Shown: in pieces, positions 1-34,596 of the stretch
Position numbering within the stretch: the stretch's first letter is position 1
How the letters are laid out: every line of letters starts with the position of its first letter
Origin: a virus
Taxonomy: Duplodnaviria; Heunggongvirae; Uroviricota; Caudoviricetes
Length of the DNA: 34,596 bases
Reading direction: 5' to 3' (one strand)
Virus record (IMG/VR): IMGVR_UViG_2541047860_000003
Location: 1 to 34,596 of that record
Position numbers and translations under genes: made by a program
Notes under the pieces: generated by a model
What the model was told of the DNA's origin: nothing
Seen by the model: only the letters and a program-made list of their open reading frames with translations
Database searches by the model: none

Positions 1-1254
1 ATGCTGGAACAAATGGGCATTGCCGCGAAGCAAGCCTCGTATAAATTAGCGCAACTCTCCAGCCGCGAAAAAAATCGCGTGCTGGAAAAAATCGCCGATG
101 AACTGGAAGCACAAAGCGAAATCATCCTCAACGCTAACGCCCAGGATGTTGCTGACGCGCGAGCCAATGGCCTTAGCGAAGCGATGCTTGACCGTCTGGC
201 ACTGACGCCCGCACGGCTGAAAGGCATTGCCGACGATGTACGTCAGGTGTGCAACCTCGCCGATCCGGTGGGGCAGGTAATCGATGGCGGCGTACTGGAC
301 AGCGGCCTGCGTCTTGAGCGTCGTCGCGTACCGCTGGGGGTTATTGGCGTGATTTATGAAGCGCGCCCGAACGTGACGGTTGATGTCGCTTCGCTGTGCC
401 TGAAAACCGGTAATGCGGTGATCCTGCGCGGTGGCAAAGAAACGTGTCGCACTAACGCTGCAACGGTGGCGGTGATTCAGGACGCCCTGAAATCCTGCGG
501 CTTACCGGCGGGTGCCGTGCAGGCGATTGATAATCCTGACCGTGCGCTGGTCAGTGAAATGCTGCGTATGGATAAATACATCGACATGCTGATCCCGCGT
601 GGTGGCGCTGGTTTGCATAAACTGTGCCGTGAACAGTCGACAATCCCGGTGATCACAGGTGGTATAGGCGTATGCCATATTTACGTTGATGAAAGTGTAG
701 AGATCGCTGAAGCATTAAAAGTGATCGTCAACGCGAAAACTCAGCGTCCGAGCACATGTAATACGGTTGAAACGTTGCTGGTGAATAAAAACATCGCCGA
801 TAGCTTCCTGCCCGCATTAAGCAAACAAATGGCGGAAAGCGGCGTGACATTACACGCAGATGCAGCTGCACTGGCGCAGTTGCAGGCAGGCCCTGCGAAG
901 GTGGTTGCTGTTAAAGCCGAAGAGTATGACGATGAGTTTCTGTCATTAGATTTGAACGTCAAAATCGTCAGCGATCTTGACGATGCCATCGCCCATATTC
1001 GTGAACACGGCACACAACACTCCGATGCGATCCTGACCCGCGATATGCGCAACGCCCAGCGTTTTGTTAACGAAGTGGATTCGTCCGCTGTTTACGTTAA
1101 CGCCTCTACGCGTTTTACCGACGGCGGCCAGTTTGGTCTGGGTGCGGAAGTGGCGGTAAGCACACAAAAACTCCACGCGCGTGGCCCAATGGGGCTGGAA
1201 GCACTGACCACTTACAAGTGGATCGGCATTGGTGATTACACCATTCGTGCGTAA
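1..1254 (+). CDS. proA: gamma-glutamyl phosphate reductase (complete, 417 aa)
   Basis: Full ORF starting at the first base; translation [30 protein letters not shown]... matches the enterobacterial ProA sequence and length as I recall it; sits directly upstream of tRNA-Thr as in E. coli. Confidence 0.95.
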
Positions 1255-1368: not shown

Positions 1369-1444
1369 GCCGATATAGCTCAGTTGGTAGAGCAGCGCAT
1401 TCGTAATGCGAAGGTCGTAGGTTCGACTCCTATTATCGGCACCA
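1369..1444 (+). tRNA. thrW: tRNA-Thr (anticodon CGU)
   Basis: 76-nt GCCGATATAGCTCAGTTGGTAGAGCAGCGCATTCGTAATGCG...GGTTCGACTCCTATTATCGGCACCA with D-loop, CGT anticodon loop, T-loop GGTTCGA and 3' CCA; a known prophage attachment locus next to proA. Confidence 0.9.
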
Positions 1445-1458
1445 TTAAAATCAATAAG

Positions 1459-2622
1459 TTACACATCATTAGTACCTTCCTTATTTTTTGACTGGGACAA
1501 ATTTGGGACCGATGGGTTCAGGATCGAGTCTATTTGCCGTGCGTGTTCGGTAAGGTGATTAGGTGCAAGGTGAGCATATCGACGAACCATTTCGATAGAC
1601 TCCCAGCCTCCCATTTCCTGTAACACTGACAACGGGACTCCGGCTTGAACCAGCCAACTTGCCCAGGTGTGTCTCAAGTCGTGAAATCTGAAATCATCAA
1701 TACCAGCCCGTCTCAGCGCCGCTTTCCAGGCTGTGTTTGCGTCATACCGCATCTTCCTTACTGTTGGCGCTTTCGTTCCGTCTGGTTTGGTACAGCTTTC
1801 CTTGTACACAAATACCCAACGGTGATGATTCCCGATTTGTTTTTTCAATACGCGACATGCAGTATCATTCAGCGCAACGCCAATTGCGCGGTTTGATTTA
1901 CTCTCTTCCGGGTTTATCCATGCCACCCGGCGCTGCATATCTATTTGTTGCCATTCAAGGTTGATGATGTTCGAGCGTCTTAAGCCTGTTGCCAGTGCAA
2001 ATTCAACAACAGACTTTAATGGCTCCGGACATTCATCAATCAGCCTTTGTGCTTCATGGGGCTCCAGCCAGCGGATCCGTTTATTCTTTGGTTGAGGCAC
2101 TTTAATAATTGGTGCCTTATCCAGCATTTTCCATTCACGCTCTGCGGCTCTTAGTAGGGCCTTTATAAATGAAAGATGCGTAGCCTTCGTTGCAACGGAC
2201 GCTGGTTTTGGCGTGTATTCTGGAACAGGTTTCCCTTTTTTTCTGCATGCTTCTGCCCTGAGTTTCCAGTTTTCCTCATGACGCCGGTTCGTCATTTTCT
2301 GCATTGCTGAATAAATTTTTGATTCAGTAATGTCTCTTAGTTGCATTCCTGCGAAATGTTGAAGCCAGAATCCGATCCGGCTTTTGTCATCGTCCAGTGA
2401 TTTTTTATGTGCTTTCTCTTCAAGCCACCTGACACACGCTTCCTCGAACGTTATATCAGGTATTTCACCAAGTTTGCTGACCCGCCATGCTTCAGCCTTT
2501 AGCTTGTCATGGAGTTCTGTCGCCTGCCTTTTGTCCTTTGTTCCAAGAGACTGTTTAAATCTTTTACCGTTCGGCAATGTGAAACTGGCGTACCATATTT
2601 CACCTCTGCGGAAGAGTGACAT
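1459..2622 (-). CDS. int: Tyrosine-type phage integrase
   Basis: 387-aa ORF 15 bp downstream of the tRNA; C-terminal catalytic region ...[42 protein letters not shown] fits the R..H-x-x-R..Y tyrosine recombinase signature. Confidence 0.85.
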
Positions 2623-13141: not shown

Positions 13142-13164
13142 AAGCCCGATTACTCGGGCTTTTG
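13142..13164. terminator. Hairpin terminator shared by Q (+) and the convergent 339-aa gene (-)
   Basis: AAGCCCGA-TTAC-TCGGGCTT followed by TTTG on the plus strand; the 339-aa gene stop codon lies in the loop. Confidence 0.6.
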
Positions 13165-14169
13165 TTCCACATCTCGAACATAGAGAATTACTGCTGACTT
13201 AATGTCACCATCGACGTGTTTTGCGTTAATGCTCAAATGTACAGGCTTTCTTTCCCACTCAGCTCGCTGCAATGCTTCTTTGTTTCCGGATTCATCAAGG
13301 AAAACATCCTGAACTACGCAGGTTAGACGTTGGTCGGTATCTACGCGTCGGACCTTAACTTTGAAACTCTCTGGGTCAGTATTATTGACTTCTTCAATTC
13401 GGTAAATACCATCAATCCTCATTTCTGATGAACGTCTACGAGCATTCGTAACCAACTCTTTCGCCATTTCAGAATCAATAGTAACGCCATCAATTTGAGC
13501 GTTATCTGAACGCACAAAGGATTTGACCATTTGGGTTTTAGCGTCATACGACATACGGTCCATGTTATCGAGAAGTGGTTTTTCCGCAATCATTTCTGAA
13601 ATAACCCGCAGGCGTTTAGTTTCTTGTTCGCTCATGATCTGCATAGTCCGGAGATGTTCTTTCTCTCCATCCTTAGCAATTTCTGCAAGGCGAATATCTT
13701 TGCGGTTGTCCAAGAACCGTTTAAATACTGTTACTCCGCCCCAGATGACTGCTGCGCCGAGAACAGTAAACATGATCTCAGTTGCGTTCATTTTACCAAC
13801 AAGTTCCTGTGTGAGTTTGGTTAAAAAGCCATCAATATTGATTTCTACTATTGAAGAACCTTGTTCTACCGTAACTTCTATTTCTAGGGCATCAAGTTCT
13901 TCTTTGGTCAGTTTGCGGACGTCAGGGACACCGTACTTGGCAAGGGCATATGATTTGTTGATTTGAGCTTGCATTTCAACAAATCCCTTCATAACTGAAG
14001 GTGTTAGCGATCTGTTGAATTTTTCACCGGTTAATCTGATGGTAAGGTTTGGCCATCCGTTGAAACTTAAACTGTCAGGTAAACCATAACCATCAAGATA
14101 GCTTTCAAGCAAATCGAAGGCTTGCTGCTCAGATTCAATGTCTACATGAATCTCATCAAACTTATCCAA
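13150..14169 (-). CDS. Hypothetical 339-aa single-pass membrane protein (reverse-oriented cargo between Q and lysis genes)
   Basis: Long ORF on the opposite strand to all flanking late genes; TTG start preceded by GAGGA with 7-nt spacer; one hydrophobic segment near the middle (ATEIMFTVLGAAVIWGGVTVF); AT-richer than neighbours; no recognisable catalytic motif. Confidence 0.6.
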   Translation of the reverse strand: MDKFDEIHVDIESEQQAFDLLESYLDGYGLPDSLSFNGWPNLTIRLTGEKFNRSLTPSVMKGFVEMQAQINKSYALAKYGVPDVRKLTKEELDALEIEVTVEQGSSIVEINIDGFLTKLTQELVGKMNATEIMFTVLGAAVIWGGVTVFKRFLDNRKDIRLAEIAKDGEKEHLRTMQIMSEQETKRLRVISEMIAEKPLLDNMDRMSYDAKTQMVKSFVRSDNAQIDGVTIDSEMAKELVTNARRRSSEMRIDGIYRIEEVNNTDPESFKVKVRRVDTDQRLTCVVQDVFLDESGNKEALQRAEWERKPVHLSINAKHVDGDIKSAVILYVRDVEQKPE

Positions 14170-15811: not shown

Positions 15812-16105
15812 TTATTGTGAGCAATACACCCGCGCTTCCAGCGGAGTATAAATGCCTAAAGTAATAAAACCGAGCAATCCATTTACGAATGTTTGCTGGG
15901 TTTCTGTTTTAACCACATTTTCTGCGCCGCCACAAATTTTGGCTGCATCAACAGTTTTCTCCTGTCCAATTCCCGAAACGAAGAAATGATGGGTGATGGT
16001 TTCCTTTGGTGTTACTGCTGTCGGTTTGTTTCCAACAGTAAACGTCTGTTGAGCACATCCTGTAATAAGCATTGCCAGAGCGGCAGAAAACAACATTTTT
16101 TTCAT
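15812..16105 (-). CDS. bor: Bor lipoprotein (serum-resistance moron)
   Basis: 97 aa from ATG at 16105 (AGGA SD); MKKMLFSAALAMLITGCAQQTFTV...EARVYCSQ matches lambda Bor. Confidence 0.85.
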   Translation of the reverse strand: MKKMLFSAALAMLITGCAQQTFTVGNKPTAVTPKETITHHFFVSGIGQEKTVDAAKICGGAENVVKTETQQTFVNGLLGFITLGIYTPLEARVYCSQ

Positions 16106-16285
16106 CTTATTATCCTGCATTGTTAAAAACGGCAGAATCCTATGTGACAACAATTAAACGATAGTTAAATGGATTGATGAAAATTAAAACTATATAGGTG
16201 TACGGTCAGACTATTGGAGGTAGTCAGGATTTGAATGTCAGTCTGTTGTCGGCATTCTGGCAATGCAATTTGGATAAAGCGGGGA

Positions 16286-20569: not shown

Positions 20570-21908
20570 CATAAGCGCTAACTTAAGGGTTGAACCATCT
20601 GAAGAATGCGACGCCTCGGTGCCTCGTTAAGACGATGCCTCGCGTTCTTCAATTGCGTTTTGTAGGCTGTCAGGGATACTGTCCCACGAATGGCCACCTG
20701 TAAGCTCCAGATGACCATTTTTGTTATTCTCCACAACGAGTTAGTTCTTCTTTTCGGATCCGGCACTTCTGGGGGGGAAATCCAGCGATGGCTGGATTAT
20801 GTCGTCAATTAAAAATGCGGCGAGTAGATTAGCAAATATCCACGCTTTCGCGAGTTCAGGTTCCTTTGCACGCAAAGCATCCAGGTGCAGCAAACTTTTG
20901 AGCCGCTTAAAAGCCAGTTCAATTTGCCATCGCAGACGGTAACAATCAGCCACTTGCTCTGCTGAATATTCATCTTCCGGTAATGATGTTAGCAATAGCA
21001 CATGGCCCGCTGCTTCCAGCGTTTCCGCCTGAACTACTCGTCCTTTTCGACGATTCTCGCTGAGCAGTCGGGTTTTACTGATTAATGCTTTTTCGGGAGG
21101 AAGTGATACGGCAATGAGACGTGCCGGAAAGGGAGCTCCGGCTTTTTTATTACCTGAATTGCCTATCATTACAGTGGTTTCACCGTTCTTACCGCAATCC
21201 AGCCCGCGCAGAAAACCCATCATGTCAAAGCGCATTCCTTCTGCAGTTAACCAGCGCAATCCTCGCCAGTGAACCCGGACGATATAATCAGCTTCTCCAA
21301 AAGCAAGTGAGCGGATACATTCGGGACGCGAACCGAATCCCCGGTCAGCAATGCGTATCTCGTCTGCCGTTTGCGCAAATCGGTCCAGCCGTTCAGCGTC
21401 TCTGCTGTCGGTTAGCTCAAAATCAGTGAACTGACAGGTATGAGGATCATATCCCATATGTAGTCGCCATTCAGCGCTGCCGCCCCCGGGCGCACTGATT
21501 GCTGTTCCATCGACAAGACGCAATCTCTTTCCGCTTGTACAACCCGTAACTGCGGCGCGTACAGCAAGTGTTTGTGCGGCAAGTATGCCAAACCAGTCGG
21601 CGGCATTCCGCAGCCGCTTCAGGAGAGCCACGTCAGATAATGTTGCAACGTCATGGAGCTGAGCCCATGCAGTGACTTCACGTAATGACATCCCCCCGGG
21701 GCCGTAAGCCAGCCCCAGACGTAGCAGAGTTGCAGCATCACGAATTTCGCGGCGGCGGGTTAGAGCCCCGGCATTACGTGCCGAAGTATCCAGTTCTTCG
21801 GGCTTACCAATATGGGCCAGAATTGCTGACCAGTTATCGTGAGAGTAATTCATCGGCACGTTAAATCATATCAGGCGTAATACCACAACCCTTAAGTTAG
21901 CGCTTATG
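20570..21908 (-). mobile_element. IS186 (IS4 family), complete copy
   Basis: Perfect 23-bp terminal inverted repeats CATAAGCGCTAACTTAAGGGTTG / CAACCCTTAAGTTAGCGCTTATG; flanked by 10-bp direct duplication GGATATGAAG (20560..20569 and 21909..21918). Confidence 0.9.
20741..21859 (-). CDS. insL: IS186 transposase
   Basis: 372-aa ORF; translation NYSHDNWSAILAHIGKPEELDTSARNAGALTRRREIRD... matches the IS186 transposase as I recall it. Confidence 0.9.
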   Translation of the reverse strand: MPMNYSHDNWSAILAHIGKPEELDTSARNAGALTRRREIRDAATLLRLGLAYGPGGMSLREVTAWAQLHDVATLSDVALLKRLRNAADWFGILAAQTLAVRAAVTGCTSGKRLRLVDGTAISAPGGGSAEWRLHMGYDPHTCQFTDFELTDSRDAERLDRFAQTADEIRIADRGFGSRPECIRSLAFGEADYIVRVHWRGLRWLTAEGMRFDMMGFLRGLDCGKNGETTVMIGNSGNKKAGAPFPARLIAVSLPPEKALISKTRLLSENRRKGRVVQAETLEAAGHVLLLTSLPEDEYSAEQVADCYRLRWQIELAFKRLKSLLHLDALRAKEPELAKAWIFANLLAAFLIDDIIQPSLDFPPRSAGSEKKN

Positions 21909-25993: not shown

Positions 25994-26164
25994 ATGTTTG
26001 TGAAACCTGTTAAAGGGCGGTCGGTACCTGACCCTGCCCACGGCGACCTTTTGCCCGCCGAGGGGCGAAATGTTGATGAGAACAACTACTGGCTGCGCCG
26101 TGAAGCAGTGGGTGATATCCGGCGCGTGAATGAAAAGGTGAATACCGATGACGATAAGCTTTAA
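25994..26164 (+). CDS. Small protein preceding tail sheath (DUF2635-like)
   Basis: 56-aa ORF MFVKPVKGRSVPDPAHGDLLPAEGRNVDENNYWLRREAVGD... with GAGGA SD; small ORFs of this kind precede Mu-type sheath genes. Confidence 0.35.
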   Translation: MFVKPVKGRSVPDPAHGDLLPAEGRNVDENNYWLRREAVGDIRRVNEKVNTDDDKL

Positions 26165-27644
26165 CACCATTCCGTCGAATACGCTGGTTCCGCTGTTTTA
26201 TGCGGAAATGGATAACTCGGCGGCGAATACTGCACAGGACAGCGGAGCATCACTGCTGATTGGTCATGCCAATAACGGTGCAGAGATTGTTGCCAACAGT
26301 CTGGTGCTGATGCCGTCGGCAGACTATGCACGTCAGATTTGTGGTGCGGGAAGTCAGCTGGCGCGTATGGTCGAGGCTTATCGCCAGACCGACCCGTTTG
26401 GTGAGCTGTATGTGATTGCCGTTCCTGAATCCACGGGCGCGGCGGCAACGGTTACGCTGACGGTGACCGGGGCGGCAACCGAAACCGGCACGGTAAATGT
26501 TTATGTGGGACGTACCCGCGTGCAGGCACCGGTGACCAACGGCGATAACGTCGCGACGATTGCCAGCAGTATCAAGGATGCCATCAATGCCGTTCCGGCT
26601 CTGCCGTTTACGGCCTCATCTTCGGCAGGCGTGGTCACGCTGACCGCGCGTCATAAGGGGCTTTGCGGGAATGAAATTCCTGTCAGCCTCAATTACTACG
26701 GCTTTGGTGGGGGCGAAGTGCTGCCAGCGGGCGTACAGATTGCCGTGGCGGCGGGGACCGCCGGAACGGGCGCTCCTGTTCTCACCGGCGCGGTGGCTGC
26801 AATGGCGGATGAGCCGTTTGATTATATCGGTCTGCCGTTCAACGACACTGCCTCCGTTAACACGCTGGTGACCGAGATGAACGATACCAGCGGTCGCTGG
26901 AGCTATGCGCGTCAGCTGTATGGTCATGTGTATACGGCAAAGATCGGCACGCTGTCAGAACTGGTGACCGCAGGTGATCAGTTTAACCAGCAGCACATTA
27001 CCCTGGCGGGGTACGAAAAAGAGACCCAGACGCCTGCCGACGAGCTGGCGGCAAGCCGTACCGCCCGCGCAGCGGTGTTTATTCGCAACGATCCGGCACG
27101 TCCCACGCAGACCGGTGAGCTGGTGGGTATGCTGCCTGCGCCGAAGGGGAAACGGTTCACGATGACCGAACAACAGACCCTGCTGTCTCATGGCGTGGCA
27201 ACGGCGTATGTCGAAAGCGGGGTACTACGCATTCAGCGTGATGTCACCACGTACAGGAAAAACGCTTACGGGGTTGCGGATAACAGCTACCTCGACAGTG
27301 AGACGCTGCATACCAGCGCGTATGTACTGCGCAAACTGAAATCCGTCATTACCAGTAAGTACGGGCGTCACAAGCTTGCCAGTGACGGTACCCGCTTTGG
27401 TCCCGGTCAGGCGATTGTCACCCCGGCGGTGATCAAAGGGGAACTGCTGGCAACCTACCGTCAGCTTGAGCGTGCGGGGATCGTGGAAAACTACGAACTG
27501 TTTAAGCAGTACCTGGTTGTGGAGCGTGATGCCAGCGATCCGAACCGCCTGAACACGCTGTTCCCGCCTGACTATGTTAACCAGTTGCGTGTCTTTGCCG
27601 TGGTTAACCAGTTCCGTCTTCAGTATTCAGAGGAGTCTGCATAA
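26148..27644 (+). CDS. Contractile tail sheath protein (Mu gpL-like)
   Basis: 498 aa; N-terminus FNTIPSNTLVPLFYAEMDNS resembles the Mu L sheath N-terminus; followed by a tube gene. Confidence 0.8.
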   Translation: MTISFNTIPSNTLVPLFYAEMDNSAANTAQDSGASLLIGHANNGAEIVANSLVLMPSADYARQICGAGSQLARMVEAYRQTDPFGELYVIAVPESTGAAATVTLTVTGAATETGTVNVYVGRTRVQAPVTNGDNVATIASSIKDAINAVPALPFTASSSAGVVTLTARHKGLCGNEIPVSLNYYGFGGGEVLPAGVQIAVAAGTAGTGAPVLTGAVAAMADEPFDYIGLPFNDTASVNTLVTEMNDTSGRWSYARQLYGHVYTAKIGTLSELVTAGDQFNQQHITLAGYEKETQTPADELAASRTARAAVFIRNDPARPTQTGELVGMLPAPKGKRFTMTEQQTLLSHGVATAYVESGVLRIQRDVTTYRKNAYGVADNSYLDSETLHTSAYVLRKLKSVITSKYGRHKLASDGTRFGPGQAIVTPAVIKGELLATYRQLERAGIVENYELFKQYLVVERDASDPNRLNTLFPPDYVNQLRVFAVVNQFRLQYSEESA

Positions 27645-28000
27645 TGGCCCGTATCGGGGGAACCTGTTATTTCAAAATTGACGGTCAACAGCTATCGCTG
27701 ACCGGCGGCATTGAGGTGCCCATGAACAGGACGGTCAATGATGACATCATCGGCCTGGACGGTTCAGTGGACCGCAAGGAAACTCACCGTGCGCCTTATG
27801 TCAAAGGGACTTTCAAGGTGCCGAAGAATTTTCCGGTGAACAAAATCACCTCGTCTGATGAGATGACTATCACTGCCGAGCTGGCGAACGGTCAGGTCTA
27901 TGTACTGTCGTCTGCCTGGCTGCACGGCGAAGCGAACCATAATGCCGAAGAAGGTACGGTTGATCTTGAGTTCCACGGTGAAGAAGGGGATTACCAGTAA
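27644..28000 (+). CDS. Tail tube protein
   Basis: 118 aa directly after the sheath, start overlapping the sheath stop. Confidence 0.7.
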   Translation: MARIGGTCYFKIDGQQLSLTGGIEVPMNRTVNDDIIGLDGSVDRKETHRAPYVKGTFKVPKNFPVNKITSSDEMTITAELANGQVYVLSSAWLHGEANHNAEEGTVDLEFHGEEGDYQ

Positions 28001-28269
28001 TGAAAGAGCTTGAGTTAAAGAAACCGATTACTGCTCATGGCGAGACACTCTCCGTACTGGAGTTTGATGAGCCTACCGGGAAGGATGTCCGCGAGCTGGG
28101 GTATCCCTACCAGATGAATCAGGATGAGTCCGTCAGACTTCTGGCGCATGTGGTGTCGAAATACATTGTGCGGCTGGCGAAAGTGCCGCAAAGCTCTGTC
28201 GACCAGATGTCTCCGGCAGACCTGAATGCAGCGGCGTGGCTTGTGGCTGGTTTTTTCCTCCAGGCCTGA
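28000..28269 (+). CDS. Tail assembly chaperone (G-like)
   Basis: 89 aa after the tube; the slippery heptamer T_TTT_TTC sits in its last codons, allowing a -1 shift into the following frame. Confidence 0.55.
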   Translation: MKELELKKPITAHGETLSVLEFDEPTGKDVRELGYPYQMNQDESVRLLAHVVSKYIVRLAKVPQSSVDQMSPADLNAAAWLVAGFFLQA

Positions 28270-29783
28270 CGGCTGAATACCTCACTGATCGCTTCTTTGA
28301 CTGCGCCAGCTACTGGCGCATTAATCCCTTCGAATTGCTGAATTTGCCGTTCAGTAAAGTTGGAGCGAAAGCGCGGATTGCCAGGGTGCTCGATAAGCAT
28401 GGTCTTGTCGGTGATTATCGCGATGTGACCCGATATAGCATTGCCTCTGGTTATCCTTTCGACGGTGATGAGGTGACCGCCGAAATGGCAGAGTGTGAAA
28501 ACCTGTTTTCTGTGCCGGTTGACGTAATGATCACAAAGGTACAGGAAGATAAAGTCAGTGGCGTAGAGGTCGTAAAGGCGTGGAAATCTCTGCCTACCGC
28601 CGAAAATATCCAATGGGTATTTGAGCGCATCGGAGCCATGCCCGCTCGTAACATGATGTCGGCAAAAATTGAGCTTCTCAGCCTGGACGGCTGCAACTCT
28701 GGTGTTAGCGAGGTATCAGCGACCAGCCAGTTATTGAGCGAGTGCGCTCGCCGTGGAGTTCCCGACAAGAACTACGCAGCACACCTGGAATCAATCGCAG
28801 AACGCAATGCGTTTCACCCCATCAATGAGATTCTCAAATTCCGGCAATGGGATGGCAAAAACCGCGTTGCTGATGTGCTAGGCGCTATCAAGACTGATGA
28901 TGACCCATATTCTCATCAAATCCTGCTGAAATGGCTGGCTGGCGCGATTTGCGCCATTGATAGCGGCAGCGTGGCTATTAAGTTTTGCCCGGTCATTCAT
29001 AGCAAGGCCAACAACTGGTACAAGTCGCAGCTACCGGAGCGCCTGTTTAATCTGGTTGAAGGTGCTTTTGGTGGCGCTATCGGCATCCCGGAGCCATCGA
29101 ACAAAGACGACCTGATGAAATCAATTAGCGCCTGGTGTTATGAATTTGGCGAACTGGCTGGAATGACTAAGCGTGACGCAGAGGCTATCAAAAGCTTTAT
29201 CCCGATGAGTGAGGATATTTTCCGGTTGCCGTATGGCCGGTGTAATCTTTCCAAGCCGCGTCAGACGGTGTACATCGGCACAACTAACCGTGATGACTTC
29301 ATTCATGATGAGACAATCGCTACACGCTTCCCGGTTATTAAGCTCGCCTCACCGATTGACATCGAGCGTATCAATAAAGCACTTGGCTACGAGTTCGACG
29401 GCAACAGGGCCGTACTGACTGACCGCGAACAACTGATCCAATTCTGGCTTGAGGTTCGCCAGATGGTTGCAGACGGCCTTAATTACGTTATTGACGGTGA
29501 GTTGCTGGCTATTACCAGAGGGAAGAACAAAGAGTTCGAGTCGAGAACCAGCTATGACACCACGCTGCTTGATACGCTGGCGATGCACGATGGCCGCACA
29601 TATCAGACCACAACGCAGATATGCAATGAAATCGGCGTGCCGGTTGATAAGCGAGTACATGTGGGCAGGGCTCTCAACAAGCTTTCGGATAATGGTGTTA
29701 TTGAAAAGAAAGTGACAGGTGGAGTGGCTTACTACACCTTCCCCACGCGGGTTAACTATTTACCAACCCGAAATCCCGAATAA
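28236..29783 (+). CDS. VirE-like protein with degenerate P-loop and C-terminal winged helix; N-terminus continuous with the chaperone -1 frame (possible fusion)
   Basis: 515-aa ORF; central region ...KSFIPMSEDIFRLPYGRCNLSKPRQTVYIGTTNRDDFIHDETIATRFPVIKL resembles the VirE / primase C-terminal family, but the Walker A position reads HSKANNWYKS; C-terminal 60 aa are similar to the C-terminus of the 118-aa protein at 30441..30797. Confidence 0.45.
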   Translation: MACGWFFPPGLTAEYLTDRFFDCASYWRINPFELLNLPFSKVGAKARIARVLDKHGLVGDYRDVTRYSIASGYPFDGDEVTAEMAECENLFSVPVDVMITKVQEDKVSGVEVVKAWKSLPTAENIQWVFERIGAMPARNMMSAKIELLSLDGCNSGVSEVSATSQLLSECARRGVPDKNYAAHLESIAERNAFHPINEILKFRQWDGKNRVADVLGAIKTDDDPYSHQILLKWLAGAICAIDSGSVAIKFCPVIHSKANNWYKSQLPERLFNLVEGAFGGAIGIPEPSNKDDLMKSISAWCYEFGELAGMTKRDAEAIKSFIPMSEDIFRLPYGRCNLSKPRQTVYIGTTNRDDFIHDETIATRFPVIKLASPIDIERINKALGYEFDGNRAVLTDREQLIQFWLEVRQMVADGLNYVIDGELLAITRGKNKEFESRTSYDTTLLDTLAMHDGRTYQTTTQICNEIGVPVDKRVHVGRALNKLSDNGVIEKKVTGGVAYYTFPTRVNYLPTRNPE

Positions 29784-29799
29784 CCAGAACACAATCCAA

Positions 29800-29824
29800 C
29801 CCTGCTACGGCAGGGTTTTTTTTG
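29800..29824 (+). terminator. Strong intrinsic terminator
   Basis: CCCTGC-TACG-GCAGGG followed by nine T residues. Confidence 0.75.
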
Positions 29825-29920
29825 CCTCGTGATCGTGACTGCTTAGCCAGAAAAGGTCAAAAGAAAGCCACTGGAAAGAAAGTCAAAACCGGCCCCTGCT
29901 ATCCCGCCGCGCTCAGGTGG

Positions 29921-30265
29921 GGTACTCCACCTACTCCCCCTACTGATGTTACTCCACCTTGTTACTCCACCTGTTTAACTGAATGATATTAAATAAGAAA
30001 AACCAAAAGGTGGAGTAGGTGGGGTAAAAAGCCGCAAAAACTCCAGAGATTTAATCAGCGGTAAAAATACAACCACCTATGGGCTATATACTACTTATCT
30101 AATTAAATAATAATTATATATAAAGTTACTCCACCTACTCCCCCTAAAGAAAATAAAGTTAAATATAAACAATATGTTAGCTCATAAAAGGCATTTAATT
30201 TACCCCCCCTTTTACCCCACCTTTACTCCCCCTATGAAACTTACCCCCCCTGATTTACCCCACCT
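29921..30265. repeat. Iteron array with AT-rich region (putative plasmid-type origin)
   Basis: At least 12 copies of the 10-mer TAC(T/C)CC(A/C)CCT in both orientations (29921..29972 direct, 30007..30025 inverted, 30126..30145, 30198..30265) around an AT-rich stretch at 30060..30180. Confidence 0.6.
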
Positions 30266-30385
30266 GATGCAGGAATCTAGCAGGAAAGTTGATAGAAAAG
30301 GCATTTTGTATTTGCGGAAGTGGTATGTAGACGATCCGCTTTCTTTTCCCAGTGGCTTACTTCCACTATCTCTGCAATTCGCTCG

Positions 30386-30414
30386 CGTAGTCTGATGTTG
30401 GTATAATGAACCAT
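30386..30414 (+). promoter_or_regulatory. Sigma70-type promoter with extended -10 (TGgTATAATGAACC)
   Basis: GTTGGTATAATGAACC about 30 bp upstream of the 118-aa gene; near-identical to GGTGGTATAATGAACC at 31973..31988. Confidence 0.5.
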
Positions 30415-30440
30415 ATAACCAACAATGCAGAGATGCGACG

Positions 30441-30797
30441 ATGACCAATGAAACAAAGGCTTTCACGGTACGAATTCCCGCAGTCGTTTATCAGGCAATT
30501 GCTGAACGGGCAAAAAATGAAGGCCGGTCACTCAGCTACATGGTGAGCAATGCGCTCTGCGCGTTCGCTGGCATTGATGACGCCCAGGATGATTACGAAA
30601 CGCTTTTGCTTGAGGCAGTTAATACCGGGTCAAATATAAGGGCGCAGACAGTGACGGAAATTTGCAGCGTTATCGGTGTGGATGCTGCCAGGCGGATTCA
30701 TGTAGGCAAGGCATTGCGAAAACTGGCAAGTGGCGGAGCGGTAGTCATGCGGAACCGCAGCGGGTGCAGAGTCTATAAATTTCCTTCTAGCGTATAA
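30441..30797 (+). CDS. RHH (CopG-like) N-domain plus winged-helix C-domain regulator
   Basis: N-terminal KAFTVRIPAVVYQAIAERAKNEGRSLSYMVSNALCAF is ribbon-helix-helix-like; C-terminus similar to that of the 515-aa protein. Confidence 0.5.
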   Translation: MTNETKAFTVRIPAVVYQAIAERAKNEGRSLSYMVSNALCAFAGIDDAQDDYETLLLEAVNTGSNIRAQTVTEICSVIGVDAARRIHVGKALRKLASGGAVVMRNRSGCRVYKFPSSV

Positions 30798-31024
30798 TGG
30801 GCAACATGAACAAATTCGACAGAGTGAAACGCCTTGAAGCGTTCAAGCCAAAGCAGCATGAAGCTGTTCTATCAATTCTCCGGGAGCGTGCTGACATGCC
30901 GTCAGGCAATGCCGGGGAATGCGTGTTTGCCATTCTCATGAAGAAATATGCTTCGGCACAGCAAAAGCCCGCAGGTATCCAGGCGTCCGGCGGGGAAAAT
31001 TCTTTTCTTCCAGTGGCTAATTGA
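30797..31024 (+). CDS. Hypothetical 75-aa protein
   Basis: ORF start overlaps the preceding stop (TAATGG); no motif recognised. Confidence 0.3.
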   Translation: MGNMNKFDRVKRLEAFKPKQHEAVLSILRERADMPSGNAGECVFAILMKKYASAQQKPAGIQASGGENSFLPVAN

Positions 31025-31056
31025 CAGAATAACCCAACGGCAAAGTTGAGGCGTGT

Positions 31057-31512
31057 ATGAAAGACAATACCGTAAATGACGCACCTGATAACGAGCAGCC
31101 CGATATCGAACGTGATAAGCGGGGGCGGTTTACTAAGGGGCAATCAGGAAACCCATCAGGGCGAACCAGAAAGGAGCGCCAGTTATTAACAATGATGGGT
31201 GATGATGCTGACAGCGTGGCGCAAATCGTCATTGATGCGGCAAAGGGCGGTGACATGCAGGCTTGCCGCTTGGTACTTGAAAGGGTGCTTCCCGTCCGCA
31301 AGGCCAGATATGAGGCCGTAGAGTTTGAAATTGATGACACCACACTTGCAGGCTCTGCAAAGTCAATTCTTGCAGCTGTAGCAGGTGGAGATCTGCCACC
31401 AGACGTGGGCGCAATGCTTCTCCAATCAGTAGCTCAAACGGCGAAGATTATCGAGATTGACGAACTTGAGCGGCGAATCGCAGCACTGGAGAAAGGCAAT
31501 GAAACTGAATAA
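31057..31512 (+). CDS. DUF5681-like protein
   Basis: N-terminal KRGRFTKGQSGNPSGRTRKER motif recalled for DUF5681-type plasmid/phage proteins. Confidence 0.4.
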   Translation: MKDNTVNDAPDNEQPDIERDKRGRFTKGQSGNPSGRTRKERQLLTMMGDDADSVAQIVIDAAKGGDMQACRLVLERVLPVRKARYEAVEFEIDDTTLAGSAKSILAAVAGGDLPPDVGAMLLQSVAQTAKIIEIDELERRIAALEKGNETE

Positions 31513-31954
31513 ACGGCTTGAAGCTCTGGAGCAGCGTAGGCCCACGAAGAAGGGCGCAGAGGCTCTCACCGATGAAGAGCTGGCCGCAGCTATCGCCAGG
31601 TTTACACCGGAAGAGATCCGCGCAGCAGAACGGGAGTTATTGCTATGGTTAGGTTAACGCGACGCCTTGAGGTTCTGGAGGAGCAGAGACAGCGTCAGCA
31701 ACCGAAGATCGATTTCCCGCTATATACCATCATTGACAAGCCATCTATACAGACACCCCGCAAGCACTCATTTTCCAATCCTCCCGCTTATCTCTTGGTG
31801 AACTCCTGAAACGAAAAAGCCCCCACATTTCTGTAGGGGCCGTTTCGTCAATCTGCGTTTGATGGTCGGAAGGATGGCCGACAACCTAATTATGCACCGG
31901 CCTGTAAAAATGTACCAGCCTTAAATACAGAAAATCGTAAAAACTTAATCACGA

Positions 31955-31990
31955 TTTTCCGTAAATCATTAACGGTGGTATAATGAACCG
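31955..31990 (+). promoter_or_regulatory. Promoter with extended -10 plus palindromic operator
   Basis: ACAGAAAATCGTAAAAACTTAATCACGATTTTCCGT palindrome followed by GGTGGTATAATGAACC, upstream of the 134-aa gene. Confidence 0.45.
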
Positions 31991-32005
31991 TCAATCCTTC
32001 TTTTA

Positions 32006-32410
32006 ATGGTGATAGCGATGAACGAAGTAGATTCAATTCTGGCCGAGCAGAAAAGAGCCGCAGAACAACGCCGCTTGGCTAATGAGAAGAAGCGCCATCC
32101 ATCCGGCCTGTACGATGCGGGTGATGGGTGGTATGTGAAGCAAATCGAAGAGCTTCACTCCCCGCTGGGTCTCAGTAAGGTGGTTCTGGTAAGCCCTGAT
32201 GATGTTTGTGTGAGATATCAGCGCCAATATGGCAAAGCACTCACCACTGACAAATTGAAGGAATGGAGCAGGGACGGGAACTTCCCGTTGCCGCGCTCTA
32301 TTAATGGGGTTATCGGTTGGGAATCGAATGTTGTGACCAATGGCCTGAATGAACTGAGCAAAGCAGCCGGTCGCGGCTTTACCTGTATCACTCGAGGATT
32401 CGCACGATGA
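32006..32410 (+). CDS. Hypothetical 134-aa protein
   Basis: ORF downstream of the promoter/operator; no motif recognised. Confidence 0.35.
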   Translation: MVIAMNEVDSILAEQKRAAEQRRLANEKKRHPSGLYDAGDGWYVKQIEELHSPLGLSKVVLVSPDDVCVRYQRQYGKALTTDKLKEWSRDGNFPLPRSINGVIGWESNVVTNGLNELSKAAGRGFTCITRGFAR

Positions 32411-32613
32411 GCAAAGAATCTGTAATCGCGGCATTGAAAAAAGCGCGTGAAGCGCGTGAAGGCAATATCTTCGGTGGTACTGGGCAGGCCGAATTTAACA
32501 AAGATTTTTATGCTGGCCGCGCCACCAAAACAGATGGTGTCAGTAAGACCGACAGTAACGAGCCGATGAACCAAAAGGCATTTAATGCCCGGTTCTACTC
32601 CGGTAAAGGCTGA
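32407..32613 (+). CDS. Hypothetical 68-aa protein
   Basis: Start overlaps the previous stop (ATGA); Lys/Gly-rich. Confidence 0.3.
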   Translation: MSKESVIAALKKAREAREGNIFGGTGQAEFNKDFYAGRATKTDGVSKTDSNEPMNQKAFNARFYSGKG

Positions 32614-32708
32614 TTATAGGCAATCGGGCATATCGCAATTGCTGCCCGACTGTTTGGATTGTGACTGTTGAGAAATAGACGCAATTCCGCAATTACAGAA
32701 AATCGCAT

Positions 32709-32933
32709 TTACTTATTTCCGTATTTCTCCATTAGTAACTCTCTAACCTCATCGGCAATCTTTGCTCCTCTCTCTGCTGTTTGCATCTTGATGGCACGGT
32801 GCAAAGATTCAGGGATATCAATCGTCAGGCGCTTCATTTTTTCCGTTTCTTCTGGCGCTGTTACGCGGTCACTAATCCAGGCGTCTGCTGATGCTGGCGT
32901 TGGTTTTTTGCCAATTGAAATCTTCTTGCTCAC
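32709..32933 (-). CDS. ParG-like RHH centromere-binding protein
   Basis: 74 aa; GTG start overlapping the parA stop; C-terminal KRLTIDIPESLHRAIKMQTAERGAKIADEVRELL is ribbon-helix-helix-like. Confidence 0.55.
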   Translation of the reverse strand: MSKKISIGKKPTPASADAWISDRVTAPEETEKMKRLTIDIPESLHRAIKMQTAERGAKIADEVRELLMEKYGNK

Positions 32934-33559
32934 TTCATTATCTCCAGCAGTTCATTAATCAGGTTCTCAATCTCTGCAACAGCCTGGCTGTTAGCGTCTA
33001 CCTCATGCAGAGCTTTACCACTCGCCGCAGCCTCTGCGAATATCACTCGCTGGGTTATTGCAGTTTGCAATGTTGGGATGTCATAAGCGGCTAAAGCCTC
33101 GCGAACATCACGCCCAATAGCTGTATTTGCGATTTTACGATTAATCACAAAACATGATTTGATGTTTTCTTTAAATACAGAAGCCTCAGCAATGAGTTTT
33201 ACTATCTCATCGGCGGCCCATATGTCATATGGTGATGGTTGAACCGGTATAAGCACCGCATCGGATGCCATGATTGCAGAACGTGCCAGGTCAGTGACTC
33301 GCGGGGCACTATCAATTACAACATGGTCATAGCCTTTCGCCAGTTCCTGAACCTCTTTATGAATTGTGGCGCGGGGAAGCCCAACGACAGAGAATAATGG
33401 TTCCCCATCTCTCGCCGCCTGCCAATCTAACGCGCTCCCTTGCGGGTCTGCATCGAGCAGCAGCACCCGGCAGCCTCTCCGGGCAAGGCTTGCCGCAACG
33501 TTCACAGAAAGCGTTGTTTTACCCACTCCGCCTTTTTGATTCAGTACGCCAATTATCAT
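32930..33559 (-). CDS. parA: ParA-type partition ATPase (small type Ib)
   Basis: Deviant Walker A MIIGVLNQKGGVGKTT..., LLDADPQGS, 209 aa. Confidence 0.85.
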   Translation of the reverse strand: MIIGVLNQKGGVGKTTLSVNVAASLARRGCRVLLLDADPQGSALDWQAARDGEPLFSVVGLPRATIHKEVQELAKGYDHVVIDSAPRVTDLARSAIMASDAVLIPVQPSPYDIWAADEIVKLIAEASVFKENIKSCFVINRKIANTAIGRDVREALAAYDIPTLQTAITQRVIFAEAAASGKALHEVDANSQAVAEIENLINELLEIMK

Positions 33560-33703
33560 GTCGACCTCTATCCAGTTTTGGCCAGATGGTACAGAAAATC
33601 GTAAAAACTTAAAAGCGTATCTTCTAATTTACAGATGAATAATCCTGTTAAATACACGCGGCAGCCCTCGTTTTTTCGTCCAGTGGCCATATTAGCGGGC
33701 CAT

Positions 33704-33735
33704 TTGACATGGCTTCAAAACGGCTTCAAAATGAT
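33704..33735 (+). promoter_or_regulatory. Sigma70-like promoter with direct-repeat operator
   Basis: TTGACA at 33704..33709, 17-bp spacer containing GGCTTCAAAA twice, then CAAAAT; upstream of the RHH gene. Confidence 0.4.
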
Positions 33736-33756
33736 GCCATAACCATAGGGGGATTT

Positions 33757-33915
33757 ATGCCAACACCAAAACCGAAAACCATCACATTCAGGCTTTCAGA
33801 TGAACTACTGGAAGATCTTAAGCGCCTTGCCGACGATGAAGGACGCTCTATTAATTCGATGCTCACGGAGTTGGTGAAGCGAGCCGCTAAAAAGCAGGAT
33901 GGCGAAAGTAAATGA
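33757..33915 (+). CDS. Small RHH (CopG/Arc-type) DNA-binding protein
   Basis: 52 aa from internal ATG; KTITFRLSDELLEDLKRLADDEGRSINSMLTELV is an RHH signature. Confidence 0.5.
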   Translation: MPTPKPKTITFRLSDELLEDLKRLADDEGRSINSMLTELVKRAAKKQDGESK

Positions 33916-34337
33916 GAAAAACACTCCTGGCATTAATCGTTATCTTGGGGTCAGTTTGGAGATCGGAAATTTCTGTACGTTAAGCGCATTATTTAACCAA
34001 TCTTGGTTCGTAAGGGGTTGATTTTGCGTCAGTGGCTATCGCTTTTAAGTTGTCGCTCTTGCAGTATCGCATTTAGGTTATCCGATTAAGGTCAAACCTC
34101 TGAAAATGCCGTATAGCGCGGGAGTACACCCTATTGCGATAGCGCGATCTGTTCAAAAAACAGGCTTAACGTACAATAATTTCCGATCTCCAAACTCACC
34201 CCTTATTCACGCTGGCCAACCTGTTTCGGGCGGACCAAATGATACGTCAGTGGGAGAGATCTCACTAAAAACTGGGGATAGCGCCTTAAATGGCGAAGAA
34301 ACGGTCTAAATAGGCTGATTCAAGGCATTTACGGGAG

Positions 34338-34596
34338 GGTGATGCTGCCAACTTACTGATTTAGTGTATGATGGTGTTTTTGAGGTGCTCCAGTGGCTTC
34401 TGTTTCTATCAGCTGTCCCTCCTGTTCAGCTACTGACGGGGTGGTGCGTAACGGCAAAAGCACCGCCGGACATCAGCGCTATCTCTGCTCTCACTGCCGT
34501 AAAACATGGCAACTGCAGTTCACTTACACCGCTTCTCAACCCGGTACGCACCAGAAAATCATTGATATGGCCATGAATGGCGTTGGATGCCGGGCA
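34338..34596 (+). mobile_element. IS1 left end (partial, continues beyond window)
   Basis: Starts with the IS1 terminal repeat GGTGATGCTGCCAACTTACTGATTTAGTGTATGATGG and continues into insA; matches IS1 from memory. Confidence 0.9.
34393..34596 (+). CDS. insA: IS1 InsA (5' portion, truncated by window end)
   Basis: GTG start; translation [68 protein letters not shown] matches IS1 InsA. Confidence 0.85.

Follow-up and report, generated by a model that had tools for sequence, protein, structure and literature searches.

The window (the whole stretch of DNA analysed, 34,596 nucleotides) carries an SfV-like prophage from its attachment site to the tail chaperone, then a plasmid-like arc and insertion sequences (Table 1). 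The tRNA gene that serves as attachment site and the aldehyde-dehydrogenase-family gene before it are, we take it, thrW and proA. The IS that splits the portal gene is flanked by an 11-bp target duplication and is missing from strain C10 (blastn of the window against C10; the gene list of L007 was also compared with that of L008); going by size only, it would be IS186-like. At the far end of the window IS1 starts with GGTGATGC, presumably the IS1 end, and rclC', rclB and rclA follow beyond it.

Table 1. Features of the window and the evidence for each.
Feature	Position	Strand	Evidence
417-aa aldehyde-dehydrogenase-family gene upstream of tRNA-Thr	1-1254		Pfam Aldedh
tRNA-Thr(CGT), prophage attachment site	1369..1444	+	ARAGORN
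Prophage tyrosine integrase, left end of SfV-like prophage	1459..2622	-	PF00589, E 3e-48
1338-bp IS inside portal gene, DDE_Tnp_1 transposase of 372 aa	20570..21907	-	Pfam; blastn vs C10
Tail sheath gene	26148..27644	+	Pfam Phage_sheath; 97-98.6% nt identity to SfV, SfI and SfII sheath
Tail tube gene	27644..28000	+	PF10618; annotation in matching phages
Tail assembly chaperone (G/E-type), 89 aa, intact	28000..28269	+	PF10109 Phage_TAC_7, E 1.9e-16
Slippery heptamer T_TTT_TTC	28251..28257	+	Direct reading
-1 frame T-extension remnant, 29 of 53 SfV codons	28257..28342	+	Translation, SfV comparison; phrog_32181, E 6e-22
Recombination junction X (phage / plasmid), GCTGAA then TTTGCCGTTCAGTAAAG	28342..28343		Homology boundaries, junction alignments
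5'-truncated VapE (VapE'), SF3 D5-type helicase-initiator, 479 of 511 codons	28344..29783	+	PF05272; alignment to intact 511-aa P0001
Non-canonical Walker A HSKANNWYKS	28998..29027	+	Alignments
Predicted C-terminal winged-helix DNA-binding domain	29553..29738	+	AlphaFold topology
Intrinsic-terminator-like hairpin then T run, past VapE stop	29798..29817	+	
Iteron origin: 14 TACYCCMCCT copies in both orientations, AT-rich core about 30080-30180	29915..30265		
118-aa protein, putative iteron-binding regulator	30441..30797	+	Pfam, BLASTP
Plasmid ParA partition ATPase	32930..33559	-	Pfam
Right end of plasmid homology, inside small RHH gene	33903..33904		blastn vs plasmid; junction sequence
IS5 right-end fragment, interrupted by IS1 in window strain	34203..34337	+	Matches to IS5 copies in C10 and strain 2017
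IS1	34338..34596	+	Start = GGTGATGC

The truncated tail module and the chimeric reading frame

A first, sequence-only reading of this DNA had described sheath, tube and chaperone genes followed by no distal tail genes, and this arrangement is indeed present: the window has no tape measure, baseplate or fibre genes, and neither has the sequence of three assemblies over the next 5 to 20 kb. In L008, a contig of ancestral appearance, the sequence to the right of IS5 was tested as a possible distal part of the SfV prophage and was not recognisably phage. The chaperone itself also matches a PHROG tail family (E 7e-24) and differs from SfV orf13 in one amino acid. Its 0-frame ends as GGT TTT TTC CTC CAG GCC TGA, and the heptamer that had been pointed out near this end lies 10 nt ahead of the stop, is phased correctly in the 0-frame (X_XXY_YYZ) and has the same sequence in phage SfV. 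The -1 frame of SfV has 53 codons with a stop overlapping the ATG of the tape measure, which in the window is missing from the homologous place after the chaperone. What stands there, as the same reading had recognised, is a -1 frame ORF of 515 aa (28236-29783), which matches SfV T for 29 codons and then VapE.

The two halves of this ORF have separate relatives. Residues 6-42 match the T-extension family phrog_32181 (E 6e-22), and residues 204-382 match PF05272, the VapE family (E 6e-33, 114.5 bits vs a cut-off of 25), so that the VirE/primase-like centre seen earlier held up. The ORF is not a unit: by these matches it is a phage-plasmid chimera with no single gene behind it. SfV-type homology extends to 28358 (96-98.6% identity) and plasmid homology begins at 28342, with patchy microhomology (13 of 16 bases common to both parents) between them, which bears out the proposed recombination junction with foreign replication-type DNA. 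The break is not at the chaperone end: comparison with the intact SfV tail module puts the switch at 28342|28343, 73 nt past the chaperone stop and inside the T extension. As the T frame continues into that of VapE, gene callers report a single 515-aa VapE domain protein, which RefSeq names 'VapE domain-containing protein'.

The plasmid-like arc (28343-33903, 5.56 kb) is about 97% identical to NZ_CP055032.1 by blastn. The 14 iteron copies at 29915-30265 compare with 0.19 matches expected in the whole window. The 118-aa protein has a weakly Arc/RHH-like N-terminus (Pfam Arc below cut-off) and a C-terminal domain paralogous to the C-terminus of VapE (BLASTP E 2e-16), with 36% identity in the winged-helix region. 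The plasmids of this Enterobacterales family are about 13 kb and carry ParA, an integrase, a Toprim primase and VapE; the intact 511-aa VapE was found on 12.7-14.0-kb contigs of E. coli, Enterobacter and Atlantibacter and on a 13.3-kb Shigella plasmid, and the near-identical plasmid VapE is the sole helicase-like gene of the parent replicon. Besides the primase and an integrase of 306 aa, the intact plasmid has genes for a Dit-like protein, for a tape-measure-like protein of 520 aa (phrog_8125, E 3e-33) and for an HTH_17 protein that is AlpA/Xis-like; both the tail-like genes and the integrase are missing from the arc in the window. Defence-system models gave zero matches for VapE' or the nearby unannotated ORFs, and no NCBIfam family reached cut-off for the integrase, primase, HTH_17 protein, VapE or three ORFs of the window.

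The VapE helicase and its P-loop

VapE' lacks the first 32 aa of the plasmid protein together with its own start, ribosome-binding site and promoter, and phage sequence stands in their place. The sequence-only reading had called its P-loop dead. It was right that HSKANNWYKS lacks the glycines: in alignments its place is taken by GGQGVGKS in PDB 7pds_A and by GxQGxGKS in canonical relatives, and compared with the canonical Walker A (GxxxxGK[ST]) the motif keeps Lys-Ser, has lost both glycines and has a one-residue insertion. The word dead is not borne out. The same type of motif occurs in 22 database relatives, the Gly before the Lys is missing in 92 of 159 alignable VapE sequences, and the glycine-poor form is conserved among relatives of just 30-45% identity. 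Alignment A1 shows no variation at the Walker B residues E303 and E306, at the sensor N351 or at the Arg finger R364, and in a larger alignment these four are conserved in 159, 161, 156 and 159 of 161 sequences. Lys-Ser/Thr, like E306, does not vary, and the other three positions hardly do. From this conservation we infer that the glycine-poor P-loop is a trait of a large VapE clade and not decay. A literature search on VapE Walker A variants returned no relevant work.

The fold agrees with a D5-type helicase, VapE matching PDB 7pds both by phmmer (E 1.8e-18) and by Foldseek (E 7e-15). The winged helix suggested earlier for the end of the ORF is likewise seen in the AlphaFold model, which closes with three helices and a beta-hairpin (mean pLDDT 69.5 overall and 65-80 in this part). 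The chromosomal VapE' has zero internal stops or frameshifts, and comparison with the plasmid alleles gives a dN/dS of about 0.15-0.18, a value that is uninformative on decay because it reflects divergence among plasmid lineages, the chromosomal copies being identical; an open frame with no visible decay would be equally expected for a recent insertion. Shorter VapE products (93 and 375 aa) that share the amino-acid variants of the chromosomal copies also occur in the protein cluster and suggest further truncations in some strains; like the IS that splits the portal gene, they point to a lineage in which decay is still going on.

Origin of the junction

The window is 100% identical to GCA_000459435.1, and the carriers of the junction, among closed and draft genomes, form one E. 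coli lineage. An assembly or scaffolding artefact that merged a prophage contig with a plasmid contig might be thought of, as the parent is a free replicon of about 13 kb in related bacteria and assemblies often break at IS elements, of which the region has many. However, the join is present at 99.9-100% identity in the closed E. coli C10 chromosome, in an independent NCBI scaffold and in ENA and Logan assemblies, it lies in unique sequence away from repeats, and 63 blocks of the collection index the exact 515-aa protein, with the same context on the contigs shown. We consider an artefact practically negligible. The junction is rare: it occurs in 1 of 5426 complete E. coli genomes, and in 1100 of these the phage part of the query (tube and chaperone) finds a match.

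A second genome is informative on how the junction arose. In strain 2017-02-1CC the plasmid arc is joined to caiC at the same nucleotide as 28342|28343, with a VapE' that is 100% identical; caiC lies in opposite orientation to the arc, with zero frame continuity, and the caiC-fixA insertion comes with a 4.9-kb deletion. The crossover on the element side is thus identical in the SfV-T and caiC events, and these are the only two junction types in the data. Relatives spanning X were limited to the plasmid itself in PLSDB and, among 5426 E. coli genomes, to the two already known; there were none among viral contigs, and metagenomes gave one intact plasmid-type contig. No regularly integrated plasmid copy was found in the 5426 complete E. 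coli genomes, and no reciprocal junction for X in the data examined.

It is very probable that this region is the scar of a recombination in a prophage undergoing decay and that the chimeric ORF has no selected function. The SfV-type prophage at tRNA-Thr has kept its genes from integrase through chaperone and is joined at 28342|28343 to a plasmid arc with the 5'-truncated VapE, ParA, small regulators and the iteron origin; the segment is closed by IS5 and IS1 sequences, and tape measure, baseplate and fibre genes are lost. With the parental frames in register, the T frame runs into the VapE frame. If the late operon were transcribed and ribosomes slipped at T_TTT_TTC, a 594-aa product (86 residues of chaperone, 29 of T and 479 of VapE) might be made, as a by-product with zero selected function. 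The register of the two frames is most likely a matter of chance, and the in-frame fusion appears incidental because the identical plasmid arc at caiC continues no frame.

The sequence-only reading had also raised a recoded product, in which the -1 frameshift would be exploited for a functional chaperone-T'-VapE' fusion of 594 aa. The heptamer, its phasing and 85 nt of native sequence 3' of it are intact, the frame is open across the junction up to the VapE stop, the late operon upstream of the junction appears largely intact in C10, and with zero promoter-like sites from tube to VapE' late-operon read-through is the sole visible source of transcript. Little besides the open frame speaks for such a product, however. 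The caiC junction at the same nucleotide continues no frame, an in-frame join has a 1-in-3 chance of arising, and in the fusion T would be short of 24 of its 53 residues and VapE of its first 32; there is neither a primase as partner nor the tape measure that T normally serves, the shorter VapE cluster products suggest further truncation in some strains, and a frameshift-stimulating RNA structure 3' of the heptamer was not prominent (weak signal, z = -1.9, with a hairpin 45 nt downstream). A functional fusion is thus very improbable. Only slightly less remote is targeted parasitism, in which the plasmid would be a phage satellite that integrates in the chaperone/tape-measure region of its helper to disable or replace tail genes. 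Integrase, AlpA/Xis-like HTH_17, primase, VapE and the tape-measure-like and Dit-like proteins of the plasmid would suit such a role, and no local sequence matches the region of X better than the SfV site, but the second insertion hit a metabolic gene, caiC, and so the target is not phage-specific; moreover, insertion is seen in 1 of about 1100 complete genomes with the tail module, the plasmid's tail-like genes and integrase were not kept in the window, and zero copies at a regular site were found.

Generic illegitimate recombination at microhomology, with no special site and with the shared breakpoint a coincidence, is unlikely as well, though less so than the two preceding explanations. Many such deletions occur in IS-rich genomes and microhomology exists at both junctions, 8 bp (TTTGCCGT) with caiC and the patchy match with SfV. 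In contrast, striking the same nucleotide twice on a 13-kb plasmid would be about a 1-in-1000 coincidence, and far longer exact plasmid matches were on offer elsewhere (419 and 488 shared 9-mers, up to 14 bp). When the 32 nt around X were compared with the local targets, the SfV site ranked 1 of 28,658 positions and the caiC site within the top 3 of 27,940, both targets thus being at or near the top in similarity. Microhomology of the generic kind is therefore disfavoured as the cause of X. A site-specific breakpoint is suggested because the same plasmid nucleotide was joined to both SfV T and caiC, and we infer a site-specific event at plasmid position X. Of the inverted core-type binding sites around a 6-8 bp overlap that a tyrosine-recombinase site would have, X shows only a short imperfect dyad (TGACGG-ATTTG-CCGTTCA). 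IS5 using X as a surrogate end was rejected, X being unlike the IS5 inverted repeat (GGAAGGTGCGAATAAG) and zero target duplication being present.

As to what made the cut, we give somewhat less than even chances to action of the plasmid's tyrosine recombinase on a pseudo-site. A break at a specific site, with repair at the local sequence that matches best, is a weaker candidate. More speculative than either, and rather doubtful, is the reading that X, at codon 32 of the plasmid VapE, is a true recombination site of satellite-like enterobacterial plasmids of about 13 kb, whose helicase belongs to the clade with a glycine-less P-loop. If that reading were true, the scar would record a plasmid-satellite inserting at pseudo-sites, including a tail gene of a helper-type phage.

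These results suggest that the RefSeq 515-aa 'VapE domain-containing protein' is best regarded as a phage-plasmid chimera in a dead prophage, neither a member of the family nor a case of recoding. In addition, one plasmid nucleotide that twice became a breakpoint is a candidate recombination site, a widespread VapE/SF3 helicase clade conserves a P-loop without the canonical glycines, and in a small plasmid family genes for tape-measure-like and Dit-like proteins sit beside a satellite-type replication module.

Comparison with known systems

The frameshift biology of G/GT-type tail chaperones was reportedly described by Xu, Hendrix and Duda in 2004, and that of the P2-type (E/E+E') is said to have been described by Christie et al. 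in 2002. Like the chaperones of these systems (lambda G/GT, P2 E/E+E', Mu-type), the gene in the window is placed after sheath and tube and encodes a PF10109 protein with a heptamer near its 3' end and an overlapping -1 ORF, which predicts a frameshift; the -1 ORF overlapping the chaperone is a conserved phage family. The T extension in the window differs in that it stops after 29 native codons and is followed by 479 foreign ones. The prophage as a whole resembles the defective lambdoid and Mu-tail E. coli prophages of SfV/SfII/SfI/SfX type at thrW in its tRNA-Thr site and gene order, with 96-99% nt identity to the SfV group, and it shares with defective E. coli prophages the loss of distal genes in the company of IS1, IS5 and a third IS. 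Unlike prophages truncated by an IS or by the chromosome, its truncation point abuts plasmid replication DNA.

The closest known counterpart of VapE is the Rep/PriRep of the staphylococcal SaPI islands (PDB 7PDS, 7OLA), with which it shares the D5-type ATPase core and the predicted C-terminal winged helix; phage P4 alpha and poxvirus D5 are more distant kin. SaPI Rep is built as an SF3 helicase with a winged helix and iterons (PMC9371898). The window matches the SaPI arrangement of iterons that come right after the ORF, flank an AT-rich core and run in both orientations, and the parent plasmid, like SaPI, encodes a primase just upstream of VapE. By analogy, the plasmid VapE would be a self-loading SF3 helicase of SaPI Rep type whose winged helix would bind the downstream iterons. 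It differs from SaPI Rep in its Walker A (HSKANNWYKS vs GGQGVGKS, with the one-residue insertion) and in its host, an enterobacterial ParA plasmid in contrast to a staphylococcal island, and the VapE' in the window is furthermore without its first 32 aa and its primase partner. The junction, finally, compares with pseudo-att recombination by tyrosine recombinases in its fixed nucleotide on the element side and in targets that are similar on both arms, and the parent plasmid is alike in that a recombinase and an Xis-like gene adjoin X, whereas the core dyad is weak and the recombinase is a candidate with no known canonical attB.

Junction between the tail chaperone and VapE

The tail module of the prophage breaks off inside the T extension, the -1 frame C-terminal extension of the tail chaperone. 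Homology to phage extends as far as 28358, and homology to the Shigella plasmid NZ_CP055032.1 (13.3 kb) runs from 28342 to 33903 at 97% identity, spanning the origin of the plasmid record. Aligning the two parents places the switch at ...GCTGAA / TTTGCCGTTCAG..., 73 nt past the chaperone stop, with the T extension retained for 29 codons and with the start region and first 32 residues of VapE (511 aa in the intact plasmid gene) removed. The 515-aa ORF is therefore chimeric, with a match at residues 6-42 to phrog_32181, the recognised phage protein family of the T extension (E 6e-22), and one at residues 204-382 to the VapE domain PF05272 (E 6e-33). The feature is an ordinary outcome of prophage decay.

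The elements named in the sequence-only reading (chaperone, phased heptamer and 515-aa -1 ORF) were all present. The chaperone (89 aa, PF10109 Phage_TAC_7) ends in the codons GGT TTT TTC CTC CAG GCC TGA, and the heptamer T_TTT_TTC is therefore phased for a -1 slip. SfV shows the classical arrangement: after the same heptamer, the -1 extension continues for 53 codons, and its stop overlaps the tape measure ATG. Here, ribosomal slippage at the heptamer would yield a product of 86 + 29 + 479 = 594 aa. The main reading, a recombination junction, was correct and its breakpoint is now fixed to the nucleotide by the parental alignment, while the suggestion of a recoded product found no support. An assembly artefact is ruled out by the closed genome of E. 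coli strain C10, which also has the junction, together with the listed NCBI, ENA and Logan contigs, which share its context. In the assembly collection, 63 blocks index the identical chimeric protein. Of 5426 complete E. coli genomes, 1100 were matched over the phage-derived section of the query (tube and chaperone), and the junction was present in only one.

Features of the prophage region and the plasmid-derived arc (window positions unless stated)
Feature	Position	Remark
Aldehyde-dehydrogenase-family gene	start of window	417 aa
tRNA-Thr(CGT)	1369-1444	
Tyrosine integrase	1459-2622	
ORF between Q antiterminator and holin	13150-14169 (-)	339 aa; patch low in GC (about 0.42)
Place of iss	15812-16153 (-)	
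IS in portal gene	20570-21907	1338 bp
Tail chaperone	28000-28269	
Open -1 frame	28236-29783	515 aa
T_TTT_TTC	28251-28257	
X, left end of arc	28342/28343; L004 20000/20001; parent plasmid L013 about 10096/10097	two unrelated chromosomal contexts
HSKANNWYKS	28998-29027	Walker A position
Predicted winged helix of VapE	29553-29738	
TACYCCMCCT repeats	29915-30265	14 copies
118-aa ORF	30441-30797	
Variable right end	33904-34596; L003 26604-29120	
Tape-measure-like and Dit-like genes	L013 4721-6957	outside window

Prophage layout and continuing decay

One scaffold of the E. coli assembly GCA_000459435.1 is 100% identical to the window, and the closed C10 chromosome is 99.9% identical, IS differences aside. 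The tRNA-Thr site is presumably thrW adjoining proA, the site used by SfV-type phages. The integrase is followed by early genes, Q, lysis, terminase, portal, protease, capsid, connectors, sheath, tube and chaperone, and the tail part is 96-98.6% identical to phages SfV, SfI, SfII and SKA5. The ORF between Q and the holin gave no match in Pfam or PADLOC and may be a moron, and an increased serum survival lipoprotein gene (iss) is annotated at the corresponding place in the C10 prophage copy.

Downstream of the truncated VapE gene (VapE') come a terminator-like hairpin, the iteron region, small ORFs, ParA, a truncated RHH gene, an IS5 fragment and IS1. No tail-like genes were found after VapE' within the window or just beyond it, where a tape measure and baseplate would have spoken against the recombination reading and where rclC', rclB, rclA and rclR lie instead. 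The right end of the segment varies among strains: a 299-bp stretch precedes an IS5 right-end fragment, which in the window is cut by IS1 with the chromosome continuing at rclC' and which in other strains is followed by an alpha/beta hydrolase gene and a complete IS5. In this lineage the decay of the prophage is continuing. An IS186-like element, judged by size (DDE_Tnp_1, 372-aa transposase), interrupts the portal gene with an 11-bp target duplication and is absent from C10 and contig L008, the IS1/IS5 configuration at the right end differs from strain to strain, and the VapE protein cluster includes shorter products of 93 and 375 aa with chromosomal amino-acid variants.

Recurrent breakpoint and the parent plasmid

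The plasmid nucleotide at the junction, X, was found a second time. Strain 2017-02-1CC carries an identical copy of the plasmid-derived arc (VapE' without a single difference over 1440 nt) whose left end is at the same nucleotide, with caiC as neighbour, and whose right end is an IS5 inverted repeat against fixA at CTAA, the cai-fix region being 4.9 kb shorter; this region is intact in C10, and the SfV tail module is absent from 2017-02-1CC. The join sequences are TTTGCCGT in K-12 caiC and TATGCCGATCAGTGAAATT in SfV. When 14 kb of local sequence was ranked by similarity to the 32 nt around X, the SfV site alone came first (21/32) and the caiC site fell in the top three (19/32), and hundreds of longer exact plasmid matches (9-14 bp) to these regions existed and were unused. 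For these reasons X seems special, and it is a candidate site for site-specific recombination or breakage. A short imperfect dyad has X in its spacer; the HTH_17 gene lies about 215 bp upstream of X and the recombinase gene 1.8 kb away. We prefer a model in which an IS5-bearing plasmid would enter the chromosome through IS5-IS5 recombination, after which a deletion, mediated by a recombinase or started by a break, would reach from X to the closest site resembling it and take away the integrase, the primase and the VapE 5' end with adjacent chromosomal or prophage DNA. An IS5-carrying plasmid variant was found in a metagenome; a search for a reciprocal junction or a third event at X found neither.

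The parent family consists of 12.7-14.0-kb contigs in E. coli, Enterobacter and Atlantibacter, most likely circular plasmids; the Shigella member is a circular plasmid record, and a short Salmonella contig bears a fragment of the same VapE protein. The plasmids encode ParA, an Arc/RHH protein, a 306-aa tyrosine recombinase, a Toprim primase, an HTH_17 (AlpA/Xis-like) protein, a DUF5681 protein and VapE, the sole helicase-like gene. A 520-aa tape-measure-like protein (phrog_8125, E 3e-33) and a Dit-like protein are encoded next to the integrase, HTH_17, primase and VapE genes. Of this plasmid, the window contains no more than the arc that starts at VapE codon 33 and ends at the RHH gene. The family resembles a phage satellite maintained as a plasmid and is, together with the recurrent breakpoint and the glycine-poor P-loop clade, a side aspect of interest.

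Nucleotide site and iterons of VapE

The Walker A position of VapE reads HSKANNWYKS and aligns with GGQGVGKS of PDB 7pds_A and GxQGxGKS of canonical relatives. It had been taken for a dead P-loop, which the relatives do not support. In an exhaustive search for VapE relatives (159 alignable sequences for Walker A, 161 for other positions), the nearest cluster representatives, 30-45% identical, shared the loop type [FYH]-S-x-x-N-[DN]-[WYF]-x-K-[ST] with its one-residue insertion, seen in 22 database proteins. A further 69 relatives have no Gly before the Lys, and 92/159 deviate from GxxxxGK[ST]. Every aligned sequence keeps the K-[ST] pair and the second Walker B Glu, and conservation at the first Walker B Glu, the sensor Asn and the Arg reaches 156 to 159 of 161. 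Conservation of the loop type among the closest relatives, two of which carry an N-terminal Prim-Pol domain, rejects decay as its origin, and the reasonable reading is that the site would be unusual yet functional. A Walker A lacking the canonical glycines, S-x-x-N-D-W/Y-x-K-S/T or G-x-Q-S-x-x-K-T, is conserved across a large VapE/SF3 clade (P0002, P0003, P0013-P0061), and no literature on it was found.

The AlphaFold model of VapE (pLDDT 69.5, pTM 0.62) gave the staphylococcal Rep1 hexamer (PDB 7PDS, E 7e-15) as the best Foldseek match, followed by the NrS-1, ASFV and poxvirus D5/E5 SF3 helicases and the SaPI5 primase-helicase; its C-terminal end is modelled as three helices and a beta-hairpin. 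Directly downstream of VapE', the 14 TACYCCMCCT repeats, in both orientations, surround an AT-rich core, compared with 0.19 matches expected in the whole window. The 118-aa ORF just beyond this origin has a weakly Arc-like N-terminus, and its C-terminus is paralogous to the last 72 VapE residues (36% identity, E 2e-16), the predicted winged helix. A plausible role for this ORF is that of a regulator which also binds these iterons, and the two proteins may form a pair in which initiator and regulator compete for the same repeats. In the self-loading Rep helicases of SaPIs, a C-terminal winged helix binds iterons just past the rep ORF (PMC9371898), and the C-terminal end of VapE with its downstream iterons has the same layout.
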